From Candidatus Gallispira sp. (GTDB taxonomy: Bacteria; Bacillota; Clostridia; Lachnospirales; CAG-274), in NCBI GenBank assembly GCA_048359195.1, contig DBGCRA010000196.1:843-64842 (forward strand): DNA of 64,000 nt, given 5' to 3'. The position numbers and the translations under genes are program-made. The notes below the pieces were generated by a model, which was given only the letters and a program-made list of their open reading frames with translations, was not told the origin of the DNA and made no database searches. Positions 611-46,845 of this stretch are shown piece after piece; within the stretch, counting starts at the first letter, position 1; every line of letters starts with the position of its first letter.

Positions 611-2521
611 ATGGCACAGCAGGAATATAATGAAAATCAAATACAAATTTTAGAGGGTCTTGAGGCAGTAAGAAAGCGTCCCGGTATGTATATTGGTTCA
701 ACCTCATCAAGAGGCTTGCATCACTGTGTTTATGAAATTGTGGATAATTCCGTTGATGAGGCTCTTGCAGGCTATTGCAGCCATATTGAGGTTACAATTC
801 ATGAGGATAATACTGTTTCCGTAAGAGATGATGGTCGTGGTATACCTGTAGGCATTCATCCACAAAAGGGTATTCCCGCTGTTGAGGTTGTGTTTACGGT
901 TCTTCATGCCGGTGGTAAGTTTGGCGGCGGAGGATATAAGGTATCAGGCGGTTTACATGGCGTTGGTGCATCTGTAGTCAATGCTCTTAGTGAATGGCTT
1001 ATTGTAGATATTTATCACGAAGGTCAGATTTATGAACAGAAATATGAAAGAGGTGATGCTGTTCACTCTCTTAAGGTAGTGGACACTTGCCCACAGGATA
1101 AAACAGGTACTTATATAAGATTTAAACCTGATGCTGAAATTTTTGAAGAAACTGTTTTTGATTTGGATACATTGAGACATCACCTGCAGGAAACTGCTTT
1201 TCTTACAAAGGGTCTTAAAATTACTTTAACTGATTTAAGGCAGGAGGAAAAGCCACAGTTTGTTTATCATTATTTAGGTGGTATTAAGGAGTTTGTTCAG
1301 AATATAAATGCTTCAAAAACTCCTATGTATGAAGAAATTTTTTATTGTGAAGGAACTTATAACAATATTGCAGTTGAAATTGCTTTCCAGCACAGTGACA
1401 GCTACAATGAAGTTAATTATTCTTATGTAAACAATATTAATACCATTGACGGAGGTACTCATATACAGGGCTTTAGAACTGCTTTAACTAAAACCATAAA
1501 TGATTACGGCAGAAAATTTGGTCTTATTAAGGCAAGTGAAAAAAATCTTACAGGTGAAGATATAAGAGAAGGTATGACCTCCATTGTCAGTGTAAAAATT
1601 GAGGCCCCACAGTTTGAAGGTCAGACTAAGGGAAAGCTTGGAACGAGTGAGGCTGCTCCGGCAGTAAACAATGTACTTTCAGAAAAATTGACTTATTTCC
1701 TTGAAGAAAATCCACAGGTAGGAAAAACAATAATTGAAAAATCACTTCTTGCTTCCCGTGCAAGAGAGGCTGCCAAAAAAGCAAGAGAACTTGTAAGACG
1801 TAAGGATGTACTTGAAAGCGGTAAACTTCCCGGTAAATTAACAGACTGTTCCGAAAAAGACCCAAGTCAGTGTGAAATTTATATTGTAGAGGGTAATTCC
1901 GCAGGCGGTTCTGCTGTTAAGGCAAGAGATGCAAAGACACAGGCTATTCTGCCTTTAAGAGGTAAAATATTAAATGTTGAAAAGGCAAGACTTGACAGAA
2001 TTTTAGGAAATGAAGAAATAAAATCTATGATTACTGCCTTTGGTACCGGTATTCATGAGGACTTTAATATTGAAAAGCTGAGATACCACAAAATTGTGCT
2101 TATGACAGATGCCGATGTTGATGGTGCTCATATTACCACATTACTTTTAACATTTATTTTCAGATTTATGCCTAAGCTTATTGAAGAAGGCTATGTATAT
2201 CTTGCACAGCCTCCACTTTATAAACTTGAAAAAGGTAAAAAGATTGTTTATGCCTATTCCGATGAAGAAAGAGATAAGACTATTGCTGAAATGGGTTCAG
2301 AAGGTATGAAGCCTATTCAAAGATATAAGGGTCTTGGTGAAATGGATGCTTCACAGCTTTGGGAAACTACTATGGATCCAACAAAGCGTATTCTTATTAA
2401 AGTTACTATTGATGATGCAAGAATTGCTGATGAAATATTTGATAAACTTATGGGCGATAATGTTGAACCAAGACGTGAGTTTATTCAGCAGGAAGCTAAA
2501 TATGCTACATTAGATGTATAA
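611..2521 (+). CDS. gyrB: DNA gyrase subunit B
   Basis: 636 aa with [49 protein letters not shown] and [12 protein letters not shown] motifs. AGGAG SD lies 8 nt upstream. Confidence 0.98.
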
Positions 2522-2535
2522 GAGGTAATAATATT

Positions 2536-5019
2536 ATGGACGAAAATAATAAAACACAATATGACAAGATAGTCACGGCAGAAATTTCGGAAACAATGAA
2601 ATCTTCTTATATTGACTATGCAATGAGTGTTATTGTTGCCAGAGCCCTGCCCGATGTACGTGATGGTTTAAAACCTGTTCATAGAAGAATACTTTATTCT
2701 ATGAATGAAATGGGACTTGCTCCCAATAAGGCTCACAAAAAGTCGGCAAGAATTACCGGTGATACAATGGGTAAATATCATCCTCATGGTGATGCGGCAA
2801 TATATGATGCTTTGGTCAGACTTGCACAGGATTTCTCAATGAGATATCCTCTTGTTGACGGTCATGGTAACTTTGGTTCTATAGATGGCTATCCTGCAGC
2901 AGCAGCAAGATATACAGAGGCAAGACTTGCTAAAATTTCTCTTGAAATGCTTGCAGATATTGATAAGGATACAGTTGATTTTATACCTAACTATGATGGT
3001 GACTTTCTTGAGCCTACGGTTCTCCCTTCAAGAATACCAAACCTTCTTGTAAACGGTTCAAGTGGTATTGCCGTAGGTATGGCAACAAATATACCTCCTC
3101 ACAATCTTTCAGAAGTTATTGATGGTCTTGTTAAAATTATTGACAATAAAATTATTGAAAAAAGAGATACAGATATTGATGAGCTATGCTCCATTATAAA
3201 GGGTCCTGATTTTCCTACAGGAGGTAATATACTTGGTAAAGCAGGTATATTAAGTGCTTACAGAACAGGCAGAGGCAGAATTAAGCTGAGGGCACAGGCT
3301 GAAATTATTACTAAGCCTAATGGCAGAGAAGAAATACTTATTACTGAAATTCCTTATCAGGTAAATAAGTCCAAAATGATTGAGGGTATTGCAGACCTTG
3401 TAAAGGATAAGAGAATTGAAGGTATTTCAGGTATTCAAGACAGTACAAATGACAGAAACGGTATCCATATTTTAATTGAGGTTAAAAAAGATGCTTCTGC
3501 TGAAATTGTACTTAATAATCTTTATAAATATTCACAGCTTCAGGAAAATTACAGTGTTAATTTCCTTGCTATTGTTGATGGTATTCCAAAGGTCCTTAAT
3601 ATCAAGGAAATGCTTATGCATTATCTTAAATTCCAAGAGGAAGTTGTTACAAGGAGAACTAAGTTTGATCTTAAAAAAGCCCTTGAAAGAATGCATATTT
3701 TAGAGGGATTTTTAAAGGCTCTTGATAATATTGATGAGGTTATTTCAATATTGAGAGGCTCTCGTACCACTCCTGAGGCTAAGGAAAAACTTATTGAACG
3801 TTTTGGATTTACTGAAATTCAGGTAAATGCCATTTGTGAAATGAGATTCAGAAGTCTTGTAGGTATGGAGAGAGAAAAGCTTCAGACAGAGTATGATGAA
3901 CTTATTGCTCTTACTGATGAGTTAAAGGCAATTCTTGCTGATGAAAACAGACTTTTTGAAGTAATCAAAGAAGAAATGCTTGAAACCAAGAAAAAATATG
4001 GTGATGAAAGACGTACAAGACTTGTAGATGATATGGGTGAAATTGATATGGAGGATATTATTTCCGATGATATGTCAGTTGTAACAATGACCCGGTTAAA
4101 TTATGTTAAGAGAATACCTCTTGACACTTATAAGTCACAGCATAGAGGCGGTAAGGGTGTTATTGGTCTTCAAATGCGTGAAGAGGATGGAGTTAAAAAG
4201 CTCTTTATAAGTACTAATCACAGCTATATTTTATTCTTTACAAATAAAGGTAAAGTTTACAGAAAGAAAACATGGGAAATTCCTGAAGCAGGCAGAAATG
4301 CTAAGGGTACTCCTATTGTTAATCTTCTTGAACTTGAAAAGGGCGAAGAAATTTCGGCTGTTATTCCTGTTAAGAATTTCAGTGAAAATGAATATCTTGT
4401 TATGATAACAAAAAATGGTGTTATAAAAAAGACACCTGCTGAATTTTATTCAAATATAAGAAAGGGCGGTCTTATTGCTCTTAATCTAAGAGATAGTGAT
4501 GAGCTTATTTCAGTATTTGTAACAAAAGGAAACAATGATATATTAATTGCCACAAGAAATGGTATGGGTATCCGCTTTAATGAAAAAGATGCACGCCCTA
4601 TGGGAAGAAGTGCTACAGGCGTTAAAGCAATTACATTAGATAATGATGATTATGTTATTGGTGCTGATGTAATTATTGATGGCTGTAAAATACTTCTTGT
4701 CAGTGAGAAAGGGTTTGGTAAGTGTACCGAACCTGATAATTATAGAATTCAGTCAAGAGGCGGTAAAGGCCTTAAGAGCTATAAAATAACTGATAAAACA
4801 GGCTATGTTGCAGGTGTTGCTGCTGTTAATGACAGTGAGGAACTTATTATGGTAAGCAGCGAAGGCGTAATTATCAGAATTAAGGTTAAAGATATTTCTA
4901 CCGTAGGAAGAGTTACTCAGGGTGTTAAGCTTGTTAATCTTAATGAGGGTGTAACTGTTATCAGTATGGATAAAATTGAAGAAGAATATGCAGATAACGG
5001 TGAAAATATTGAAGAATAA
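2536..5019 (+). CDS. gyrA: DNA gyrase subunit A
   Basis: 827 aa with [24 protein letters not shown], the active-site region [10 protein letters not shown], and C-terminal beta-pinwheel repeats. It immediately follows gyrB. Confidence 0.98.
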
Positions 5020-25503: not shown

Positions 25504-25775
25504 TCCTGTGCATCCAACTTCGACAGTAGCCTCCAAGCGTTACTGCAGGTTTTGACTCAAATCAAGCTACCTTGCAACACACGAGAGGGACTGCTTAGTG
25601 CTGCTTCCTTCCGGATCTGACACGGTTCACAGATTCCCGTTGTGCAAGACTCAATCGTCAACATCAAAAGCCTGCAGGCTGACCCTACAAACTAAAGCCT
25701 CGGTTCGGACATAATCTCTGCTAAAGCGGATTGCAGACTACAGGGCACCGCTACCTCCCCGACTAGCACAGGACT
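25504..25775 (-). ncRNA. ffs: Signal recognition particle RNA, long Bacillus/Clostridium type (scRNA)
   Basis: GC-rich island. The reverse complement reads ...GTGCTAGTCGGGGAGGTAGCGGTGCCCTGTAGTCTGCAATCCGC...GTCAGATCCGGAAGGAAGCAGCACTAAG..., matching the B. subtilis scRNA Alu-domain and helix-8 (GGAAGGAAGCAGC) blocks. 5'/3' ends pair (TCCTGTGC/GCACAGGA) and a T6 follows. Lies downstream of tadA, as in Bacillus. Confidence 0.88.
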
Positions 25776-27276: not shown

Positions 27277-27981
27277 TTATAACGGTTTTCTATCAATCTT
27301 CTTAGCTCTTCTGGGATACATATCCGGAGTATTTTTTATCTTTTTTATTACCACAACAGTATGTTTTAAATCGGTATCAGGCAAAGTTATTTCCTCTACA
27401 TTTATAATTTCTCCCCCAAGTTCAGCTACAGCGTTTTTAGCCCTTTCAATTTCATCATATGCGGCAGGTCCTTTTAATGCAATCATAAGTCCGCCTACCT
27501 TAACAAAGGGTAAGTCATACTCGCAAAGTATATTAAGGGGCGCAACAGCTCTTGATAGGGCTATATCAAATTTTTCTCTGTAATTTTCATCCTGTCCCAG
27601 CTCCTCTGCTCTGCCGTGAACAAATTCTGCATTTGTGTTTGTTTTTCTGCATACATCTTTAAGGAAATTAAGCCTTTTTGTAAGTGAGTCCAAAAGTGTG
27701 AGTTTTATGGATGGACAGGTTATTTTTAAAGGCAGTCCGGGAAAACCTGCACCTGTTCCTACATCAATTACATTTTTGTTTTCAAAATCTGCAATATTAA
27801 GAACTGTTACACTGTCTGCAAAGTGCTTTACAGCTACCTCACTGTCTTCGGTAATACCTGTTAAATTCATTACTTTATTCCATTCTACAAGGAGATTTTT
27901 GTATATGACAAAGGTGTCAGCCTGATTTTTGTCAATTTCTATATTCATTTTCTTGAAATAATCTGTTATAAACTTGTTCAT
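27277..27981 (-). CDS. rsmG: 16S rRNA (guanine527-N7)-methyltransferase
   Basis: 234 aa. VDVGTGAGFPGLPLKI SAM motif and an overall GidB-like pattern. Confidence 0.92.
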   Translation of the reverse strand: MNKFITDYFKKMNIEIDKNQADTFVIYKNLLVEWNKVMNLTGITEDSEVAVKHFADSVTVLNIADFENKNVIDVGTGAGFPGLPLKITCPSIKLTLLDSLTKRLNFLKDVCRKTNTNAEFVHGRAEELGQDENYREKFDIALSRAVAPLNILCEYDLPFVKVGGLMIALKGPAAYDEIERAKNAVAELGGEIINVEEITLPDTDLKHTVVVIKKIKNTPDMYPRRAKKIDRKPL

Positions 27982-28721
27982 CAGTCTAAATGCCTTGCCT
28001 TTCTTACTCCCTTTAAAATTACCTTTTTACATTCAACTGCTTTGCTCTTATCCATTGCCTCGACTCCTTTTAATGGATACTCCATACCAAGTGCTTCGTA
28101 TTTTTTAACACCCATTGTGTGATAAGGCAAAACGTCAAGAGCTTTAACATTTTTAAGAGAGCCTATAAACTCTCCGAGCATAAATAAATATTTTTCATCG
28201 TCTGTTATTCCGGGTACAACAACGTGTCTTATCCACATAGGTATATTGTTTTTGTCAAGATATTTTGCAAAGGCAATAATATTGTCATTTTTTTGTGCCG
28301 TAAGGTCGATATGTGAACTTGGGTCAATATGCTTTATGTCAAGCATAACAAGGTTTGTATATTTAATAAGCTCATCGAATTTTGTTGTGTTTTCAGGTGT
28401 AAAAGTTATTCCCGATGTATCAAGACAGGTATGAATATTTTCTTCTCTGCATTTTTTGAAAAGCTCAGTGACAAAATCTATTTGCATTAAAGGTTCACCG
28501 CCTGTTGCGGTAATTCCTCCGTTTTTATAAAATGACCTGTTTCTGTTAAAGGCATCAATAATTTCATCAACTGACATTTCCGTGCCTCCTGTCATTTCCC
28601 ATGTATCAGGGTTGTGACAGTACTTGCATCTCATTGGACAGCCCTTGAAGAAAACCACAAAACGTATGCCCGGACCATCTACGCTGCCAAAGCTTTCTAT
28701 TGAATGTATGTGTGCTTTCAT
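27981..28721 (-). CDS. pflA: Pyruvate formate-lyase activating enzyme (radical SAM)
   Basis: IHSIESFGSVDGPGIRFVVFFKGCPMRCKYCHNPDTW (CxxxCxxC), GGITATGGEPL. Start at MKAHIHS after an AAGGAG SD. Confidence 0.93.
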   Translation of the reverse strand: MKAHIHSIESFGSVDGPGIRFVVFFKGCPMRCKYCHNPDTWEMTGGTEMSVDEIIDAFNRNRSFYKNGGITATGGEPLMQIDFVTELFKKCREENIHTCLDTSGITFTPENTTKFDELIKYTNLVMLDIKHIDPSSHIDLTAQKNDNIIAFAKYLDKNNIPMWIRHVVVPGITDDEKYLFMLGEFIGSLKNVKALDVLPYHTMGVKKYEALGMEYPLKGVEAMDKSKAVECKKVILKGVRKARHLD

Positions 28722-28743
28722 TTTAATCTCCTTTTTTAAAATC

Positions 28744-28775
28744 AAAGTTTATTTTACTTTTGTAAAATAAACTTT
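28744..28775. repeat. Diverged copy of the palindromic repeat family (AAAGTTTATTTTAC-tttt-GTAAAATAAACTTT)
   Basis: 14-nt perfect arms sharing the GTTTATTT...AAATAAAC core, 23 nt upstream of the pflA start. Confidence 0.6.
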
Positions 28776-28791
28776 AATTTTATTATAAACC

Positions 28792-28821
28792 AAAAAAGGC
28801 GGTTAGTAAACCGCCTTTTTC
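28792..28821 (-). terminator. Intrinsic terminator after the glycyl-radical mini-gene
   Basis: On the minus strand: AAAAAGGCGGTTTACTAACCGCCTTTTTTGG. Confidence 0.85.
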
Positions 28822-28827
28822 TTTTAA

Positions 28828-29067
28828 TTAAAATTTATCGTGGAAAGTTCTTGAAATAACTTCATCCTGCTGTTCCTTAGTAAGCTTATTAAAGTTTACG
28901 GCATAGCCTGAAACTCTTACAGTAAGCTGTGGATACTTTTCAGGATGAGCCTGAGCATCAAGTAAAGTTTCCTTTGTAAATACATTTACGTTTAAATGAT
29001 GACCGCCCTTTTCAGCATAGCCATCAATAATATTAACTAAATTATCAATCTGCTGTTCGTTAGACAT
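28828..29067 (-). CDS. Free-standing glycyl-radical domain protein (GrcA/YfiD-like, equals the missing C-terminus of PFL)
   Basis: 79 aa: [79 protein letters not shown]. Contains the RVSGYAV glycine-radical loop. Own GGGAGG SD. Confidence 0.85.
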
Positions 29068-29099
29068 AATAAAAATCCTCCCAATATTCAATTTAAATA

Positions 29100-29309
29100 T
29101 TAATCTTCTCTGTCCATACCCTCAAAGAGAGTGGGAACCTGACAGGCTAAATCTCCTTTAGCGCAGTCAAGAGATGCTGTTTTGTCGATATGGACATTGT
29201 CAGTATTTACATCACCTGTTTCATCAACAGATACATTTAAGTGTCCGCCATCGTTTGACATAAAGCTGTCAATCATAGCAACAATATCATCAATTTTATC
29301 CTGTGACAT
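29100..29309 (-). CDS. 69-aa ORF: truncated, diverged duplicate of the radical-domain N-terminal strand, no glycine loop
   Basis: [28 protein letters not shown]... aligns with the first about 29 aa of the 79-aa ORF, then diverges ([41 protein letters not shown]). AAGGAAGAG SD. Confidence 0.55.
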
Positions 29310-29324
29310 ATTAATCACTCTTCC

Positions 29325-31370
29325 TTATTTTTCTAAATCCAAGTCCACTTCAAGGTCACCGTGGAAAATCTTATCCTCTTTGCCTAAAGCACCCGGGATA
29401 ATTGAGAATGTATCAGAAATACCGTCCTGTGCATCCTTGAAAGGAATCTTTGCAACAGAAGCAAGAGAAGCTACAGCACCATGGCTATCTCTGTGGTGCA
29501 TAGGGTTAGCACCGGGGGCAAATGGTTCTCCCGCCTTTCTGCCATCCGGAGTTGAGCCTGTGTTTTTTCCATAAACTACATTAGATGTAATGGTAAGAAC
29601 AGATGTAGTAGGAACACCGTCTCTGTAAGTGTGGTTCATCTTAACATAATCAAGGAATGTAGATACTAAATCTCTTGCAATATCGTCAACTCTGTCATCG
29701 TCGTTGCCGTACTTAGGGAAATCGCCCTCAACCTCATAGTCAATAACAATGCCGTTTTCATCTCTTACAGTCTTAACCTTAGCATACTTAATAGCTGAAA
29801 GTGAATCGGCAACTACAGAAAGACCTGCAATACCTGTTGCAAACCAACGTGTAATATTTTTATCGTGTAATGCCATTTGCAATCTTTCATAGCTATACTT
29901 ATCATGCATATAGTGAATAATGTTAAGAGCGTTTACATATACGCCTGCAAGCCACTTCATCATATCCTTGTATTTATCCATTACTTCGTCATAATCAAGG
30001 TATTCTGATGTAATAGGTCTGTACTTTGGACCAACCTGCTTCTTTGAAATTTCGTCAACACCACCGTTAATAGCGTATAAAAGACACTTGGCAAGGTTAG
30101 CTCTTGCACCGAAGAACTGCATTTCCTTACCGATTCTCATAGAAGATACGCAGCATGCAATAGCGTAGTCATCACCGTGGTAAACTCTCATAAGGTCATC
30201 ATTTTCATACTGAATTGAAGATGACGCAATAGAAGTCTTTGCACAAAATCTCTTAAAGTTCAAAGGAAGTCTTGTAGACCAGAGAACTGTTAAGTTAGGC
30301 TCGGGAGCTGTACCTAAATTCTGTAAAGTATGAAGGTATCTGTAGCTCATCTTGGTAACCATATGTCTGCCGTCAATCCCAACACCACCGATAGATTCTG
30401 TTACCCAAGTAGGGTCGCCTGAGAAAAGTGCATTGTATTCAGGTGTTCTTGCAAACTTAACAAGTCTTAACTTCATAATAAAGTGATCAACAAATTCCTG
30501 AATTTCATCTTCAGTAAACGTACCATTCTTTAAATCTCTTTCTGCATAAATATCAATAAATGTAGAAGTTCTGCCTAAACTCATTGCAGCACCGTTCTGC
30601 TCCTTAACAGCAGCAAGATAAGCCAAATAAGTCCACTGTATAGCTTCCTGAACATTTGCGGCAGGTCTTTTAATATCAAAGCCGTAAATTTCGCCAAGCT
30701 GAACTAATTCATGCAAAGCTCTAATCTGCTCTGAAATTTCCTCCCTGTTTCTTATAACGTCTTCTGTCATTGTCTGACGGCAACGTGACTTTTCAGCCTC
30801 TTTATCTGCAATAAGTCTGTCAACGCCGTAAAGAGCAACTCGTCTGTAGTCGCCTATAATACGTCCTCTGCCGTAAGCATCAGGCAGACCTGTAATAATA
30901 TGAGCTGTTCTGCAGGCTCTTATTTCAGGAGTGTAAGCATCAAATACGCCGGCATTGTGAGTTTTTCTGTGAGTTGAAAAAAATTCAACAACTTCAGGGT
31001 CAACTTCATAACCATTGTCTTTACATGCCTTAACTGCCATTCTGATACCGCCATAAGGCTGAAGTGAACGTTTAAATGGCTTGTCTGTCTGGAAGCCTAC
31101 AATTTTTTCCTTGTTTTTATCTAAATAACCTGCGCCGTGAGATGTAATGGTTGAAATAACCTTTGTGTCCATATCCAGCACGCCGCCTGCCTCCAATTCC
31201 TTTTTTGAAAGGTCCATAACCTGCTCCCAAAGCTCCTGAGTAGCCTTGGTTGGGCCTGCAAGGAAAGCATCGTCACCATCATAAGGTGTATAATTTTTCT
31301 GAATAAAATCTCTTACATTGATTTCTCTCTGCCATACACCATTGACAAAGCCATTCCATTCTTGATTCAT
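29325..31370 (-). CDS. pflB: Pyruvate formate-lyase catalytic core, lacking the C-terminal glycyl-radical domain
   Basis: 681 aa. PFL N-terminus, active-site [27 protein letters not shown] and [18 protein letters not shown]. Ends ...[27 protein letters not shown], about 80 aa short of full-length PflB. Confidence 0.9.
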
Positions 31371-31577
31371 TTTCTCTCCTCCAAATCATATTGTTAATAA
31401 TCTATTTTAACTGTTGTCAAGTTTTATATTGTTTTGTCTGCTTGACAGCATAATGATATCATACTTGTTAATATTATGTCAATACAAAAATCAAAATAAT
31501 TAATAATAATTATTATTTAAAGTTATTAGCTTTAGCTAACTCATAGTAAAACCGTCGGAAATTAATTTTTTAAAGTT

Positions 31578-43200: not shown

Positions 43201-44937
43201 TTATTTATTTTTTCTGTTTACATAAGTGGTATGTAGAAGTTTATGTGCTCTTGCTTTACCGGGACTGTCAAAGAATTCATCATAAATCATTTTTATAACA
43301 GGGCTTTCATGGGATTTTCTTATTTTAAGTCCTTTATCTGCATCATAGAGTACCTTTGAACGCAGTCCTTTAAGATCAACATAATTTCTTATGCTATCAC
43401 TTTGCACAGGCTGACCGCCGCCGTTTATACAGCCGCCGGGACAAGCCATAATTTCCACAAAGTGATAATCCTTTTCACCTGACTTTATACTGTCAATTAC
43501 CTTTCTTGCATTTGCAAGACCTGAAGCAACAGCTACATTTATTTTTAATCCGCTTATAGTATATGTAGCCTCTTTAATGGCATCGTTACCTCTGACTTCT
43601 TTAAAGTCGGTTCTTTTAATATCAGAGTTAAGCATATGTGCCGCTGTTCTTAAGGCTGCTTCCATTACTCCGCCTGTAGCACCGAAAATAACACCGCCGC
43701 CGCTTGCAAATTCAAAAGGATTGTCATAGTTTTCATCATTTATTTCATTGAAAACTATACCTGCACCTTTTATCATTTTAGCAAGCTCTCTTGTTGTAAG
43801 AGAAACATCTACATCCTGATAACCCATTGCATTTTGTTCCTTACGGGTTATTTCAAACTTCTTTGCCGTACATGGAATAACACTTACTACAAAAACATCC
43901 TTAGGATGTATTCCTGTTTTCTGGCAATAGTAGCTTTTAAGGAGTGCACCAAACATTTGCTGAGGCGACTTACAGGTGGAAATGTTAGGTATCATTTCAG
44001 GATAATAATGCTCAACAAATTTTACCCAGCCGGGACAGCAGGAAGTGAACATAGGCAGTTTTCCAAAGCCGTTTATTCTTTCAACAAGTTCGTGAGCTTC
44101 TTCCATAATTGTAAGGTCTGCCGTAACATTCATATTAAATACTTTGTCTACACCAAGACGTCTTATAGAGGCAACCATTTTACCTTCTACATCGGTTCCG
44201 GGAGGCATATTAAAACATTCGCCAAGTGTTGCACGAATTGAAGGTGCCGTAAACATAATGACATGCTTATCAGGATTGGAAATTGCTGACCAAACCTCAT
44301 CAATCTGGCTTTTTTCGCTTAAAGCACCTACAGGACAGGCAACTATACATTGTCCGCAGCCGACACATGGAGAATCTGCAAGGCTCTTTTCAAAGGCACA
44401 GCCTACGTGAACATCATAACCTCTTTTAATAGGACCTATTACGGAAACTGACTGTACATTCTTACAGGCGGCAACACATCGCATACACTGTATGCACTTA
44501 CTGTTGTCCCTTACAATATAAGGTGACAAATCGTCAATAGGATATAAAGCGTCATCACCCTTAAATCTGTCCTCGTCAACACCGTAGTCAAAAGACAGCT
44601 TTTGAAGTTCGCAGTGATTACCTCTTACACAGGAAAGGCATTTTTTGTGGTGACTGGAAAGTATAAGCTCAATAGTAGTTTTTCTTGAGGCACGCACCTT
44701 TGGAGTATTTGTAAGTACCTCCATACCCTCTTCAACAGGGTATACACATGAGGCAACAAGACCGTTTCTTCCCTTGATTTCAACTACACATACTCTGCAT
44801 GCACCTATACAGTTTATGTCCTTTAAATAACAAAGTGACGGTATCTCAATATGTATTGATTTTGCTGCCTGCAAAATAGTATAATTGGCAGGCACAGTTA
44901 CAGGAATATTATTTATTTTTAAATTAACCGTATCCAT
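43201..44937 (-). CDS. hydA: [FeFe]-hydrogenase catalytic subunit (HydA, group A3 type)
   Basis: N-terminal 2Fe-2S and FeS domains. H-cluster motifs FTSCCPGWV, IPCTAKKFE, EIMACPGGCINGGGQP. Confidence 0.9.
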   Translation of the reverse strand: MDTVNLKINNIPVTVPANYTILQAAKSIHIEIPSLCYLKDINCIGACRVCVVEIKGRNGLVASCVYPVEEGMEVLTNTPKVRASRKTTIELILSSHHKKCLSCVRGNHCELQKLSFDYGVDEDRFKGDDALYPIDDLSPYIVRDNSKCIQCMRCVAACKNVQSVSVIGPIKRGYDVHVGCAFEKSLADSPCVGCGQCIVACPVGALSEKSQIDEVWSAISNPDKHVIMFTAPSIRATLGECFNMPPGTDVEGKMVASIRRLGVDKVFNMNVTADLTIMEEAHELVERINGFGKLPMFTSCCPGWVKFVEHYYPEMIPNISTCKSPQQMFGALLKSYYCQKTGIHPKDVFVVSVIPCTAKKFEITRKEQNAMGYQDVDVSLTTRELAKMIKGAGIVFNEINDENYDNPFEFASGGGVIFGATGGVMEAALRTAAHMLNSDIKRTDFKEVRGNDAIKEATYTISGLKINVAVASGLANARKVIDSIKSGEKDYHFVEIMACPGGCINGGGQPVQSDSIRNYVDLKGLRSKVLYDADKGLKIRKSHESPVIKMIYDEFFDSPGKARAHKLLHTTYVNRKNK

Positions 44938-44949
44938 AAAAGCACCCCC

Positions 44950-46845
44950 TTATTTAGTCATAATAGCGTTAAATTTACAGTTTTTAACGCAAAGACCACA
45001 TTTGATACATACATTTTTGTCAATAACATGAGGCTTTTTAACCTCGCCGCTAATGGCATTAACAGGACAGTTTTTAGCACATTTTGTACAGCCTTTGCAA
45101 AGCTTTGGCTGAATTTCATAATAAAGAAGTGATTTACATACTCCTGCGGGACAGGTTTTATCCACAATATGAGCAAGGTATTCATCTCTGAAATACTTTA
45201 TTGTGGAAAGAACAGGGTTAGATGCTGACTGACCAAGAGCACAGAGAGAAGATGTTTTCATATGCATTGAAAGCTCTTCTATTTTGTCAAGGTCTTCAAG
45301 CTCGCCCTTGCCTGAGGTAATCTTTTCAAGAAACTGCATAAGTCTTCTTGTGCCTATTCGGCAAGGTGTACATTTACCACAGGATTCGTCAACGGTAAAT
45401 TCCAGATAAAATTTTGAAATATCTACCATACAGGTATCTTCGTCAAGAATAATAAGACCGCCTGAGCCCATCATAGAGCCTAAAGCAATAAGGCTGTCAT
45501 AATCAATAGGAGTGTCAATATGACAGGCAGGTATACAGCCACCTGAAGGACCGCCTGTCTGTGCTGCCTTAAACTTTTTGCCGTTAGGTATTCCTCCGCC
45601 TATTTCCTCTACGATTTCACGAAGTGTAGTACCCATAGGTATTTCCACAAGACCTACATTTGTTATTTTTCCGCCAAGAGCAAAAACCTTTGTGCCCTTT
45701 GATTTTTCTGTACCTATACTGCTGAACCATTCTGCACCATTTAATATAATCTGTGCTATGTTTGCATTTGTTTCTACATTGTTAAGTACTGTAGGTTTAC
45801 CGAAAAGACCCTTTACAGCAGGGAATGGAGGACGGGGACGAGGTTCGCCTCTGTGACCTTCAATAGATGTCATAAGAGCTGTTTCTTCGCCGCATACAAA
45901 TGCACCTGCACCAAGTCTTATTTCTATATCAAATGAAAAATCCGTTCCAAATATGTTTTCGCCTAAAATACCATATTCTCTTGCTTGATCTACTGCAATT
46001 TGAAGTCGCTGAACGGCAATAGGATACTCTGCACGAACATAAACATAACCTTTTTGTGCTCCTATACTGTAGCCTGCTATTGCCATAGCCTCTATAACAC
46101 AGTGAGGATCACCTTCAAGTATTGATCTGTCCATAAATGCACCGGGGTCGCCTTCATCAGCATTACAGCATACATATTTAATATCGCCTTCTGCCGCTTT
46201 TGCAAATGCCCATTTTCTGCCTGTAGGGAATCCGCCACCGCCTCTGCCTCTAAGACCTGATTTAAGTACTTCTTCAATAACTTCGTCACCGCTCATTGAT
46301 GTAAGAACTTTTGCAAGTGCCTGATAACCGTCAAGAGCTATGTATTCCTCTATTTGTTCGGGGTCAATAACACCGCAGTTTCTAAGAGCAACTCTCATTT
46401 GCTTTTTGTAGAACTGAGTTTCATTTAATGACACTATACTTCCATCACTGTGTATAGTTTCCCGGTAAAGAAGTTCCTTAACAATATTGTTGTTTTTAAG
46501 ATGTTCTTCAACAATTTTTTCAACACCCTCCGGAGTTACCTGACTGTAAAAACAGCCTTCGGGATATACAATCATTACAGGACCAAGGGCACATAGACCA
46601 AAACAGCCTGTTTTGACAACAAGGATTTCTTTTTCAATGCCGTTTTTCTCCAGTGCGGCTTCAAGAGCAGCAATAACTTTGTGAGAGCCTGATGAAGTAC
46701 AGCCGGTACCTCCGCATATAAGTACCTGCTTTTTGTAGCCTGTTTTTTTGGCAAGCTCTTCGCCCTGCTCCTTTATAACCTTACGAACCATTACCAAATC
46801 TCTTTTGGAATCTCTGATTTTGTTTAATTCTTCAATGGTTATCAT
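44950..46845 (-). CDS. hydB: NADH-binding flavoprotein subunit of bifurcating hydrogenase (HydB / NuoF-like)
   Basis: GLRGRGGGGFPTGRKW FMN/NAD site, the SLBB region, CGKCTPCR, and two C-terminal ferredoxin-type CxxCxxCxxxCP motifs. Confidence 0.9.
   Translation of the reverse strand: MITIEELNKIRDSKRDLVMVRKVIKEQGEELAKKTGYKKQVLICGGTGCTSSGSHKVIAALEAALEKNGIEKEILVVKTGCFGLCALGPVMIVYPEGCFYSQVTPEGVEKIVEEHLKNNNIVKELLYRETIHSDGSIVSLNETQFYKKQMRVALRNCGVIDPEQIEEYIALDGYQALAKVLTSMSGDEVIEEVLKSGLRGRGGGGFPTGRKWAFAKAAEGDIKYVCCNADEGDPGAFMDRSILEGDPHCVIEAMAIAGYSIGAQKGYVYVRAEYPIAVQRLQIAVDQAREYGILGENIFGTDFSFDIEIRLGAGAFVCGEETALMTSIEGHRGEPRPRPPFPAVKGLFGKPTVLNNVETNANIAQIILNGAEWFSSIGTEKSKGTKVFALGGKITNVGLVEIPMGTTLREIVEEIGGGIPNGKKFKAAQTGGPSGGCIPACHIDTPIDYDSLIALGSMMGSGGLIILDEDTCMVDISKFYLEFTVDESCGKCTPCRIGTRRLMQFLEKITSGKGELEDLDKIEELSMHMKTSSLCALGQSASNPVLSTIKYFRDEYLAHIVDKTCPAGVCKSLLYYEIQPKLCKGCTKCAKNCPVNAISGEVKKPHVIDKNVCIKCGLCVKNCKFNAIMTK

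Follow-up and report, generated by a model that had tools for sequence, protein, structure and literature searches.

How does a pyruvate formate-lyase (PFL) operate when its gene stops short of the glycyl-radical domain on which catalysis depends? This question is raised by a locus in a 64,000-nt stretch of DNA from Candidatus Gallispira sp. (assembly GCA_048359195.1, contig DBGCRA010000196.1, positions 843 to 64,842), hereafter called the window. On its minus strand (31482..27981), a promoter-like site precedes three open reading frames (ORFs), each with its own Shine-Dalgarno sequence, followed by a terminator and by the activase gene pflA (Table 1). The first ORF encodes a PFL core devoid of the radical loop, the second a small protein (the middle ORF) and the third a free-standing radical domain of 79 aa, GrcA3. 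Core and GrcA3 probably form an obligate two-part PFL, with the radical subunit supplied in trans and exchangeable. A preliminary description of the locus had listed the core with its Cys-Cys site, the stop, the downstream radical ORF with its GGGAGG motif, the terminator and pflA, all of them correctly, as we found on rechecking the sequence. The same is true of its claim that every piece has its own start and Shine-Dalgarno sequence (those of the middle and 79-aa ORFs are given in Table 1), and the gap of about 260 nt that it had placed before the missing segment measures 257 nt from the core stop to the ATG of the 79-aa ORF.

The two pieces together account for a complete PFL. The core matches the Pfam family PF02901 (PFL-like) with 733.5 bits and passes the formate C-acetyltransferase equivalog model TIGR01255 (1118.4 bits, for a cut-off of 994.2) over profile positions 2-665 of 744, positions 663-743 being covered by the 79-aa protein. 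The Pfam Gly_radical model PF01228 (106 positions) is likewise shared out, with positions 1-51 matched by the core and 50-106 by the 79-aa protein, so that the scan with these two Pfam families, proposed in the preliminary description, divides this model at 50/51. Residues 10-682 of the Escherichia coli PFL align to core residues 4-670 and residues 680-756 to residues 5-76 of the 79-aa protein. Since the alignments end and start at 682 and 680, respectively, the cut sits precisely where the barrel body gives way to the C-terminal unit formed by a helix, the strand beta-10, the Gly734 loop and the last helix. The Cys-Cys pair of the core, which we take to correspond to C418/C419 of E. coli, aligns with the same segment of solved PFLs, and the other motifs retained in the core, as well as RVSGYAV, are presumably the catalytic residues of the E. 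coli enzyme. The RVSGYAV radical loop is found on the 79-aa ORF and not on the core polypeptide, which stops at about E. coli residue 682. The 79-aa protein passes the NCBIfam model NF038360, "autonomous glycyl radical cofactor GrcA3" (170 bits for a cut-off of 158, positions 2-77 of 78), and the RVSGY motif is invariant among 16 members of this family. By contrast, it stays below the cut-off of the GrcA/YfiD model TIGR04365 (spare_glycyl; 96.9 versus 170 bits), of which it covers positions 65-124 of 126 only, and it lacks the YfiD-type N-terminal region. No other glycyl-radical domain, second PFL or other glycyl-radical enzyme was found in the operon or in the 64-kb window.

The split form is widespread and conserved. 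The exact 681-aa core protein is present on three contigs with the same neighbours, and its best 120 homologues are nearly all 681 aa long (or 682/691 aa, with alternative starts) and 92-98% identical. Single clusters of the truncated core were found on at least 1000 contigs, up to 2.3 Mb in length, and the 681-aa form is kept across hundreds of clusters, with carriers that include "Eubacterium sp. CAG:274" and Lachnospirales metagenome-assembled genomes (MAGs). Four more divergent relatives, selected via distant homologues of the middle ORF (about 55-65% identical to that of the window), have cores 74-87% identical to the window core and the same gene order: a core of 679-689 aa, a small ORF, a GrcA3 of 79-81 aa and, usually, pflA. 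Comparison of the window with these relatives shows saturation at synonymous sites (proportion of synonymous differences, pS, 0.6-0.95), and the proportion of nonsynonymous differences (pN) is well under this value in every gene of the operon: 0.10-0.19 in the core, 0.10-0.21 in GrcA3, 0.21-0.34 in the middle ORF and 0.27-0.30 in pflA. The gaps between the ORFs contain no translatable PFL sequence.

On a wider scale, a scan of GTDB with one genome per species yielded at least 598 matching stretches, of which we examined the best 80 GrcA3-like loci; 75 are split and one encodes a single polypeptide, the remaining four being ambiguous or truncated by contig ends. The carriers include Lachnospiraceae, Oscillospiraceae, Christensenellaceae, Atopobium, Veillonella and Spirochaetales, a cross-phylum spread that suggests horizontal transfer. 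The split occurs in the complete genome of Ruminococcus callidus ATCC 27760 and in many Collinsella aerofaciens isolates, and Blautia schinkii, Catonella and Allofournierella massiliensis encode a core of 690-696 aa, then GrcA3, then pflA. GrcA3-like proteins (about 80 aa) occur in great numbers, with 85-95% identity across Clostridia, and many bear the NCBI name GrcA3. Thus, the recurrent gene order in distant relatives, the low pN against saturated pS and the 75 split loci out of 80 strongly support the view of the preliminary description that the split evolved as such and is not the product of decay. In Collinsella, an 86-nt spacer separates a 683-aa core without Cys tail from a downstream GrcA3-like protein of 83 aa, and no pflA lies further downstream; in Collinsella sp. 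AM34-10, the spacer of this simplest split form contains a GC-rich inverted repeat (L037, 3898..3983).

How such an enzyme would work can be proposed from the known anatomy of PFL. The 681-aa core would provide the barrel, the Cys-Cys loop and the substrate sites, and GrcA3, equivalent to E. coli PFL residues ~680-759 (helix, strand beta-10, RVSGY loop and C-terminal helix), would dock non-covalently in the empty socket of the core, its strand completing the barrel and its radical loop coming to lie beside the Cys-Cys loop. PflA, encoded by the adjoining gene, would put the glycyl radical on GrcA3, and the assembled complex would then function as an ordinary PFL. Oxygen destroys PFL through chain cleavage at the radical glycine; after such an event, only the 80-residue subunit would be lost and it could be exchanged without remaking the ~77-kDa core. 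The middle protein would be a conserved accessory, with a helix and a strand that fit the same socket and an acidic Cys motif in the place of the radical loop. Docking of GrcA3 in trans, its activation by PflA and the logic of a replaceable part are what we infer from the arrangement of the genes and their homologies, and the dependence of the core on an in-trans radical domain, as put forward in the preliminary description, is the natural inference. Complementation in trans is established for fragments of the E. coli enzyme: PFL cleaved by oxygen regains activity with E. coli YfiD or T4 Y06I (PMC8683613; PMC13450708).

Several points weigh against an obligate two-part enzyme. Deletion of residues 696-733 from cleaved E. 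coli PFL weakened both the binding of YfiD and the activation (PMC8683613), and a core without this strand is therefore not automatically a good acceptor, although natural split cores are presumably adapted to strand-less docking. In the literature, we found no activity, electron paramagnetic resonance (EPR) or complex data for any GrcA3 system. A strict motif search located pflA at most 1.2 kb downstream in only 29 of the 75 split loci, and in Collinsella it is not adjacent to the split pair. Both structures that we predicted have low confidence, with a predicted local distance difference test score (pLDDT) of 54.2 for the middle ORF and 35.8 for a natural fusion of core and middle ORF. A socket common to the middle protein and GrcA3 would mean competition between them in what is proposed to be a productive enzyme. 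Finally, an intact PFL elsewhere in the genome, if present, could make GrcA3 an ordinary spare part.

This last point is the basis of the most serious alternative, in which GrcA3 would be a conventional YfiD-like spare part for an intact PFL encoded elsewhere and the truncated core a non-catalytic or differently functioning relic. It agrees with the NCBI short name rad_fix_GrcA3, which implies a repair role, and with the fact that the validated GrcA-type proteins all repair intact PFL. We nevertheless consider it unlikely, given that the truncated core keeps all the catalytic motifs, is under strong purifying selection (see the pN values above), exceeds the PFL equivalog cut-off despite its truncation and lies immediately upstream of GrcA3 in 75 of the 80 loci, usually within one operon, and that there is no second PFL within the 64-kb window.

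Recoding has still less in its favour. It would require readthrough of the in-frame TAA to fuse the core and the middle ORF into a product of ~755 aa, the length of a PFL. In the window, the middle ORF indeed lies in the frame of the core, from which it is separated by one TAA and five codons. Moreover, a related protein (P0012, 760 aa, from one 2.5-kb contig) is an in-frame fusion of the core and the middle ORF in which a sense codon replaces the stop, which could be a sequencing error or a real variant. However, the middle ORF is in the core frame in 6 of 17 loci, which is the chance level, and at several loci the two overlap in different frames; the middle ORF comes with a Shine-Dalgarno sequence and an ATG of its own, a fused product would remain without the radical glycine, and an Rfam scan of the split-PFL locus returned zero RNA elements. 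We therefore rejected stop-codon readthrough, the in-frame arrangement not being conserved, and regard it as very improbable in the window.

That a sequencing or assembly error, or a recent pseudogene, explains the split is hardly conceivable: isolated premature stops are frequent artefacts in contigs derived from metagenomes, but the distribution data already refute this origin, the same stop position recurring across hundreds of clusters, with at least 1000 contigs and also isolate genomes among its carriers (which answers the concern of the preliminary description about an assembly artefact and about conservation in relatives), each piece having its own start and Shine-Dalgarno sequence, the intergenic stretches not being translatable as PFL and a related native protein in the PDB ending in the same kind of tail. 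An intein or trans-splicing was also dropped, because intein motifs are absent and every piece has the make-up of a normal gene, Shine-Dalgarno sequence included.

The two-part PFL proposed here comes with additional components, a conserved pseudo-domain and a Cys module, which make the system richer than previously described. The preliminary description had noted in passing that the middle ORF exists and had recognised neither its conservation nor its kinship to the radical domain. We found 45 homologous clusters at 90% identity, all of which consist of free-standing proteins, 69-116 aa in length, that bear the label "hypothetical". When 23 sequences are aligned, the most distant of them 51% identical to that of the window, 13 columns are invariant and the N-terminal consensus is IDDIV.M.D.FM...GGH.NV.V, followed by a variable linker and then by the C-terminal acidic Cys motif with two Cys. 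A profile search against 1.84 billion representatives (50% identity) retrieved 210 sequences at E<=1e-3 and 83 at E<=1e-10, and the 150 relatives listed are 31-160 aa long, with no full-length PFL among them. All pairs of middle ORFs are saturated at synonymous sites (pS at least 0.52), and their median pN/pS of 0.48 is consistent with constraint. To judge from these sequence comparisons, the middle ORF is a conserved protein family, previously unannotated and new here. In profile-profile comparison (hhalign), only its first 31 columns match the helix and strand of GrcA3 (95.9% probability); against the GrcA3 hidden Markov model (HMM), it gives only a weak match over positions 2-31 (E 2e-4). 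It has no Pfam match at E<=0.1, PF01228 included, it lacks RVSGY, and no relatives were found in the PDB. Our reading is that a glycyl-radical domain (GRD) was duplicated in tandem and that the middle ORF is its first copy in degenerate form, a pseudo-GRD. With 23 homologues, AlphaFold2 predicted only the N-terminal helix (residues 3-18) of the middle protein. The model of the natural fusion P0012, whose alignment contained only near-identical sequences, was unusable; the short middle-ORF homologues could not be placed by MAFFT on the long P0012 tail.

A further aspect of the middle protein concerns its possible role. The conserved helix and strand would be a socket-binding element and, since GrcA3 has them as well, the same socket would be expected for both proteins. 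For the acidic CX4-6C module, a redox switch, a metal site and a thiol quencher are all conceivable functions, and the protein as a whole could act as a placeholder, as a regulator of the socket or as the partner of a silent protomer. We tentatively suggest, as one possibility among these, a dead pseudo-radical-domain that would compete with GrcA3 for the core socket, its Cys motif serving as a gate or switch (redox-sensitive, metal-binding or radical-quenching) over docking or activation; such a competing pseudo-domain might also fill the silent protomer of a half-of-sites dimer. If this were true, the enzyme would have three components and regulate itself, an arrangement not described for the glycyl-radical enzyme superfamily.

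The Cys motif of the middle ORF is fused to the core tail in other lineages. Comparison of the core tails with the middle ORFs distinguishes four types among the 75 split loci: type A, in which the core tail ends in GDIEVDLDC.NGAC.TPTLFEGLD, the motif of the middle-ORF C-terminus (10 loci); type B, with shorter Cys core tails such as DCACCEPN, in Blautia, Allofournierella, Atopobium and Veillonella (14 loci); type C, without Cys tail, chiefly in Collinsella (39 loci); and type D, that of the window, with a short acidic core tail and a separate middle ORF (12 loci). Ruminococcus-type middle ORFs end in DC...GACCQPTE, forming a bridge between types A and B. Stretches of ~125-140 residues are duplicated exactly within two core homologues, P0001 (805 aa) and P0003 (821 aa), probably as assembly artefacts; P0003 ends in a type-B tail (EPDCACCEPNLSVDEAE). 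The lone single-polypeptide locus, in a Treponemataceae MAG (L028, 1856..4240), is an open stretch of 794 residues with a Cys-containing linker of ~35 aa (NYGNCMSCDTATIMAAP) between the ALGK of the barrel body and the GrcA3-like domain. A crude neighbour-joining tree built from 37 cores, rooted at the midpoint and without support values, nests this protein among split forms, so that a re-fusion may have given rise to it; several deep branches of the tree carry type D, with types A to C interspersed. A history that would accommodate these forms is a tandem duplication of the GRD, after which the first copy would have degenerated and been kept as a separate protein (type D), trimmed to a tail (types A and B) or lost (type C).

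The surroundings of the split genes complete the operon. PflA is the radical-SAM enzyme that activates PFL (TIGR02493 PFLA, 308.5 bits for a cut-off of 231.75), and the gene caller gave it the same length, 246 aa, on a contig with an identical core. The stop codon of pflA ends on the base with which the ATG of rsmG, the gene for the 16S rRNA m7G methyltransferase GidB, begins, so the activase and this ribosome-modification gene appear to be translationally coupled; the order pflA-rsmG is the same on the identical contig L001. In two other loci, a gene for a 56-aa 2x[4Fe-4S] ferredoxin, a candidate electron donor for the activase, lies directly 3' of pflA (L002, 6746..6916; L004, 6424..6594), a position where it is absent in the window. 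A small DUF1858 (PF08984) gene is divergent from the PFL core in two unrelated type-D loci (L004, 2453..2653, minus strand; L008, 2391..2609, minus strand). The promoter-like site upstream of the core agrees with 11 of 12 consensus positions and has an extended -10 element, which makes it a candidate promoter by resemblance to the consensus only. The terminator listed in Table 1 is the sole strong terminator-like site in the stretch from the core start to pflA. The window is chromosomal, with gyrB-gyrA at its start, and it also contains a large signal recognition particle (SRP) RNA and a gene pair that resembles HydA and HydB, subunits of an electron-bifurcating [FeFe] hydrogenase.

Table 1. 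Coordinates of the split PFL locus and of other features mentioned in the text, as positions in the window.
Feature	Coordinates	Strand	Description
Promoter-like site, sigma-70-type	31453..31482	-	TTGACA, 18 nt, TG-TATCAT; ~80 nt 5' of the core ATG
PFL core	29325..31370	-	681 aa; Cys-Cys site ACCVSSM; glycyl-radical loop absent; acidic C-terminal tail
Middle ORF	29100..29309	-	69 aa; own Shine-Dalgarno sequence AGGAAGAG at 29325..29318
Shine-Dalgarno sequence of the 79-aa ORF	29082..29077	-	GGGAGG; 9 nt 5' of the ATG at 29067
Radical-domain ORF (GrcA3-type)	28828..29067	-	79 aa; GGHHLNVNV present; C-terminus RTFHDKF
Intrinsic terminator, hairpin and T-run	28792..28821	-	13-pair stem, 5 GC pairs; closes the core / middle ORF / grcA3 unit
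pflA	27981..28721	-	246 aa from the ATG at 28721; Shine-Dalgarno sequence AAGGAG; ~100 nt 3' of grcA3
rsmG	27277..27981	-	
Large SRP RNA	25506..25771	-	Rfam RF01854, 187 bits
gyrB-gyrA	611..5019	+	
Gene pair resembling HydA and HydB	43201..46845	-	

No glycyl-radical enzyme is more widespread than PFL, which gives gut anaerobes a main way of turning pyruvate into acetyl-CoA and formate. Should the split form prove obligatory, the central metabolism of many abundant taxa of the gut (Blautia, Ruminococcus, Collinsella, Veillonella and many Lachnospiraceae and Oscillospiraceae) would run on a radical enzyme in two or three pieces, with a cheap and disposable oxygen-sensitive part, and the textbook idea of a "spare part" would be a constitutive design rather than a means of repair. 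A natural split would also offer a handle on the exit of the radical domain from the barrel, its encounter with the activase and its return, a movement whose study in E. coli has needed engineered fragments. The Cys module and the pseudo-domain are testable candidates for the control of radical installation or for oxygen protection. Annotation pipelines hide this architecture, since they label the middle protein as "hypothetical" and the core as an ordinary formate C-acetyltransferase.

Among known systems, a close parallel is the spare-part protein. Only E. coli YfiD/GrcA and T4 Y06I have been validated as such, as a glycyl-radical-enzyme review of June 2026, which does not mention natural PFL splits, also states (PMC8683613; PMC13450708). 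Like GrcA3, these partners of E. coli PflB (PDB 6owr for YfiD) are small proteins with a GGxHLNVNV strand, an RVSGYAV loop, plus a helix at the C-terminus; they are activated by the PFL-activating enzyme and complement a PFL body without a working radical domain, as GrcA3 would be expected to do. YfiD residues 67-125 align to GrcA3 residues 19-77. However, YfiD has 127 aa, with a disordered N-terminus of 60 residues, whereas GrcA3 has 79 aa and starts with a helix equivalent to PFL residues 680-692; the YfiD gene is unlinked to pflB, whereas grcA3 belongs to the operon of the core; and YfiD serves an intact 760-aa PFL after oxygen damage, whereas the window core never has a radical domain and would thus always need its small partner. 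A possible lead on co-expression comes from a transcriptome of Fannyhessea vaginae, in which grcA and pflB head the list of co-regulated genes (PMC11979175); it would bear on the split form if pflB is split in that strain. In the literature that we searched, no paper uses the name "GrcA3" and none describes a natural split PFL.

The arrangement itself is nonetheless on record in databases. The 79-aa protein is a member of NF038360, whose name GrcA3 is used by RefSeq/GenBank in Blautia, Allofournierella, Catonella and Sellimonas, among others; this is an annotation family only, with a name that implies repair and not an obligate subunit, and it is silent on the truncated partner and on the middle ORF. 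In the PDB, entries 38lb and 38la ("Formate acetyltransferase") are, like the window core, naturally truncated PFL cores without radical domain. The 38lb chain matches the window core with 1180 bits over 674 residues; it has 739 residues, including ~21 extra N-terminal residues unaligned to the window core, which we take to be a tag, and ends in a native acidic Cys tail (ALGKSGNVMFGECDMCEMKELDD / GECDMCEMKELDD ... ENKPDCACAADASAKEGCEDNK). The 38la chain is the same protein cut just after ALGKSG. Among the loci examined, the cores nearest to both are those of Atopobium (81%). The tail of 38lb is fused to the core (type B), whereas the window carries its Cys motif on a separate small protein. 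We found no GrcA3-like chain in the PDB and no paper accompanying these two entries. Since the NF038360 family and the two structures exist, the split architecture is known to NCBI's curators and to at least one group of structural biologists, but it seems not to have been published. The preliminary description had known of no characterised PFL with this organisation; indeed, we found no published characterisation, but the arrangement is common and already catalogued.

For the middle ORF, the nearest counterparts are the small Cys proteins that are encoded beside the catalytic subunits of two other glycyl-radical enzymes, namely the beta and gamma subunits of benzylsuccinate synthase and the small subunit of 4-hydroxyphenylacetate decarboxylase, at least one of which influences access to the radical domain. 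These accessory subunits bind a [4Fe-4S] cluster via at least four Cys and are unrelated to the radical domain, whereas the middle protein has two Cys and an N-terminus homologous to that domain. In both enzymes the radical glycine remains on the large subunit, unlike in the system of the window, where it is encoded by a gene of its own.

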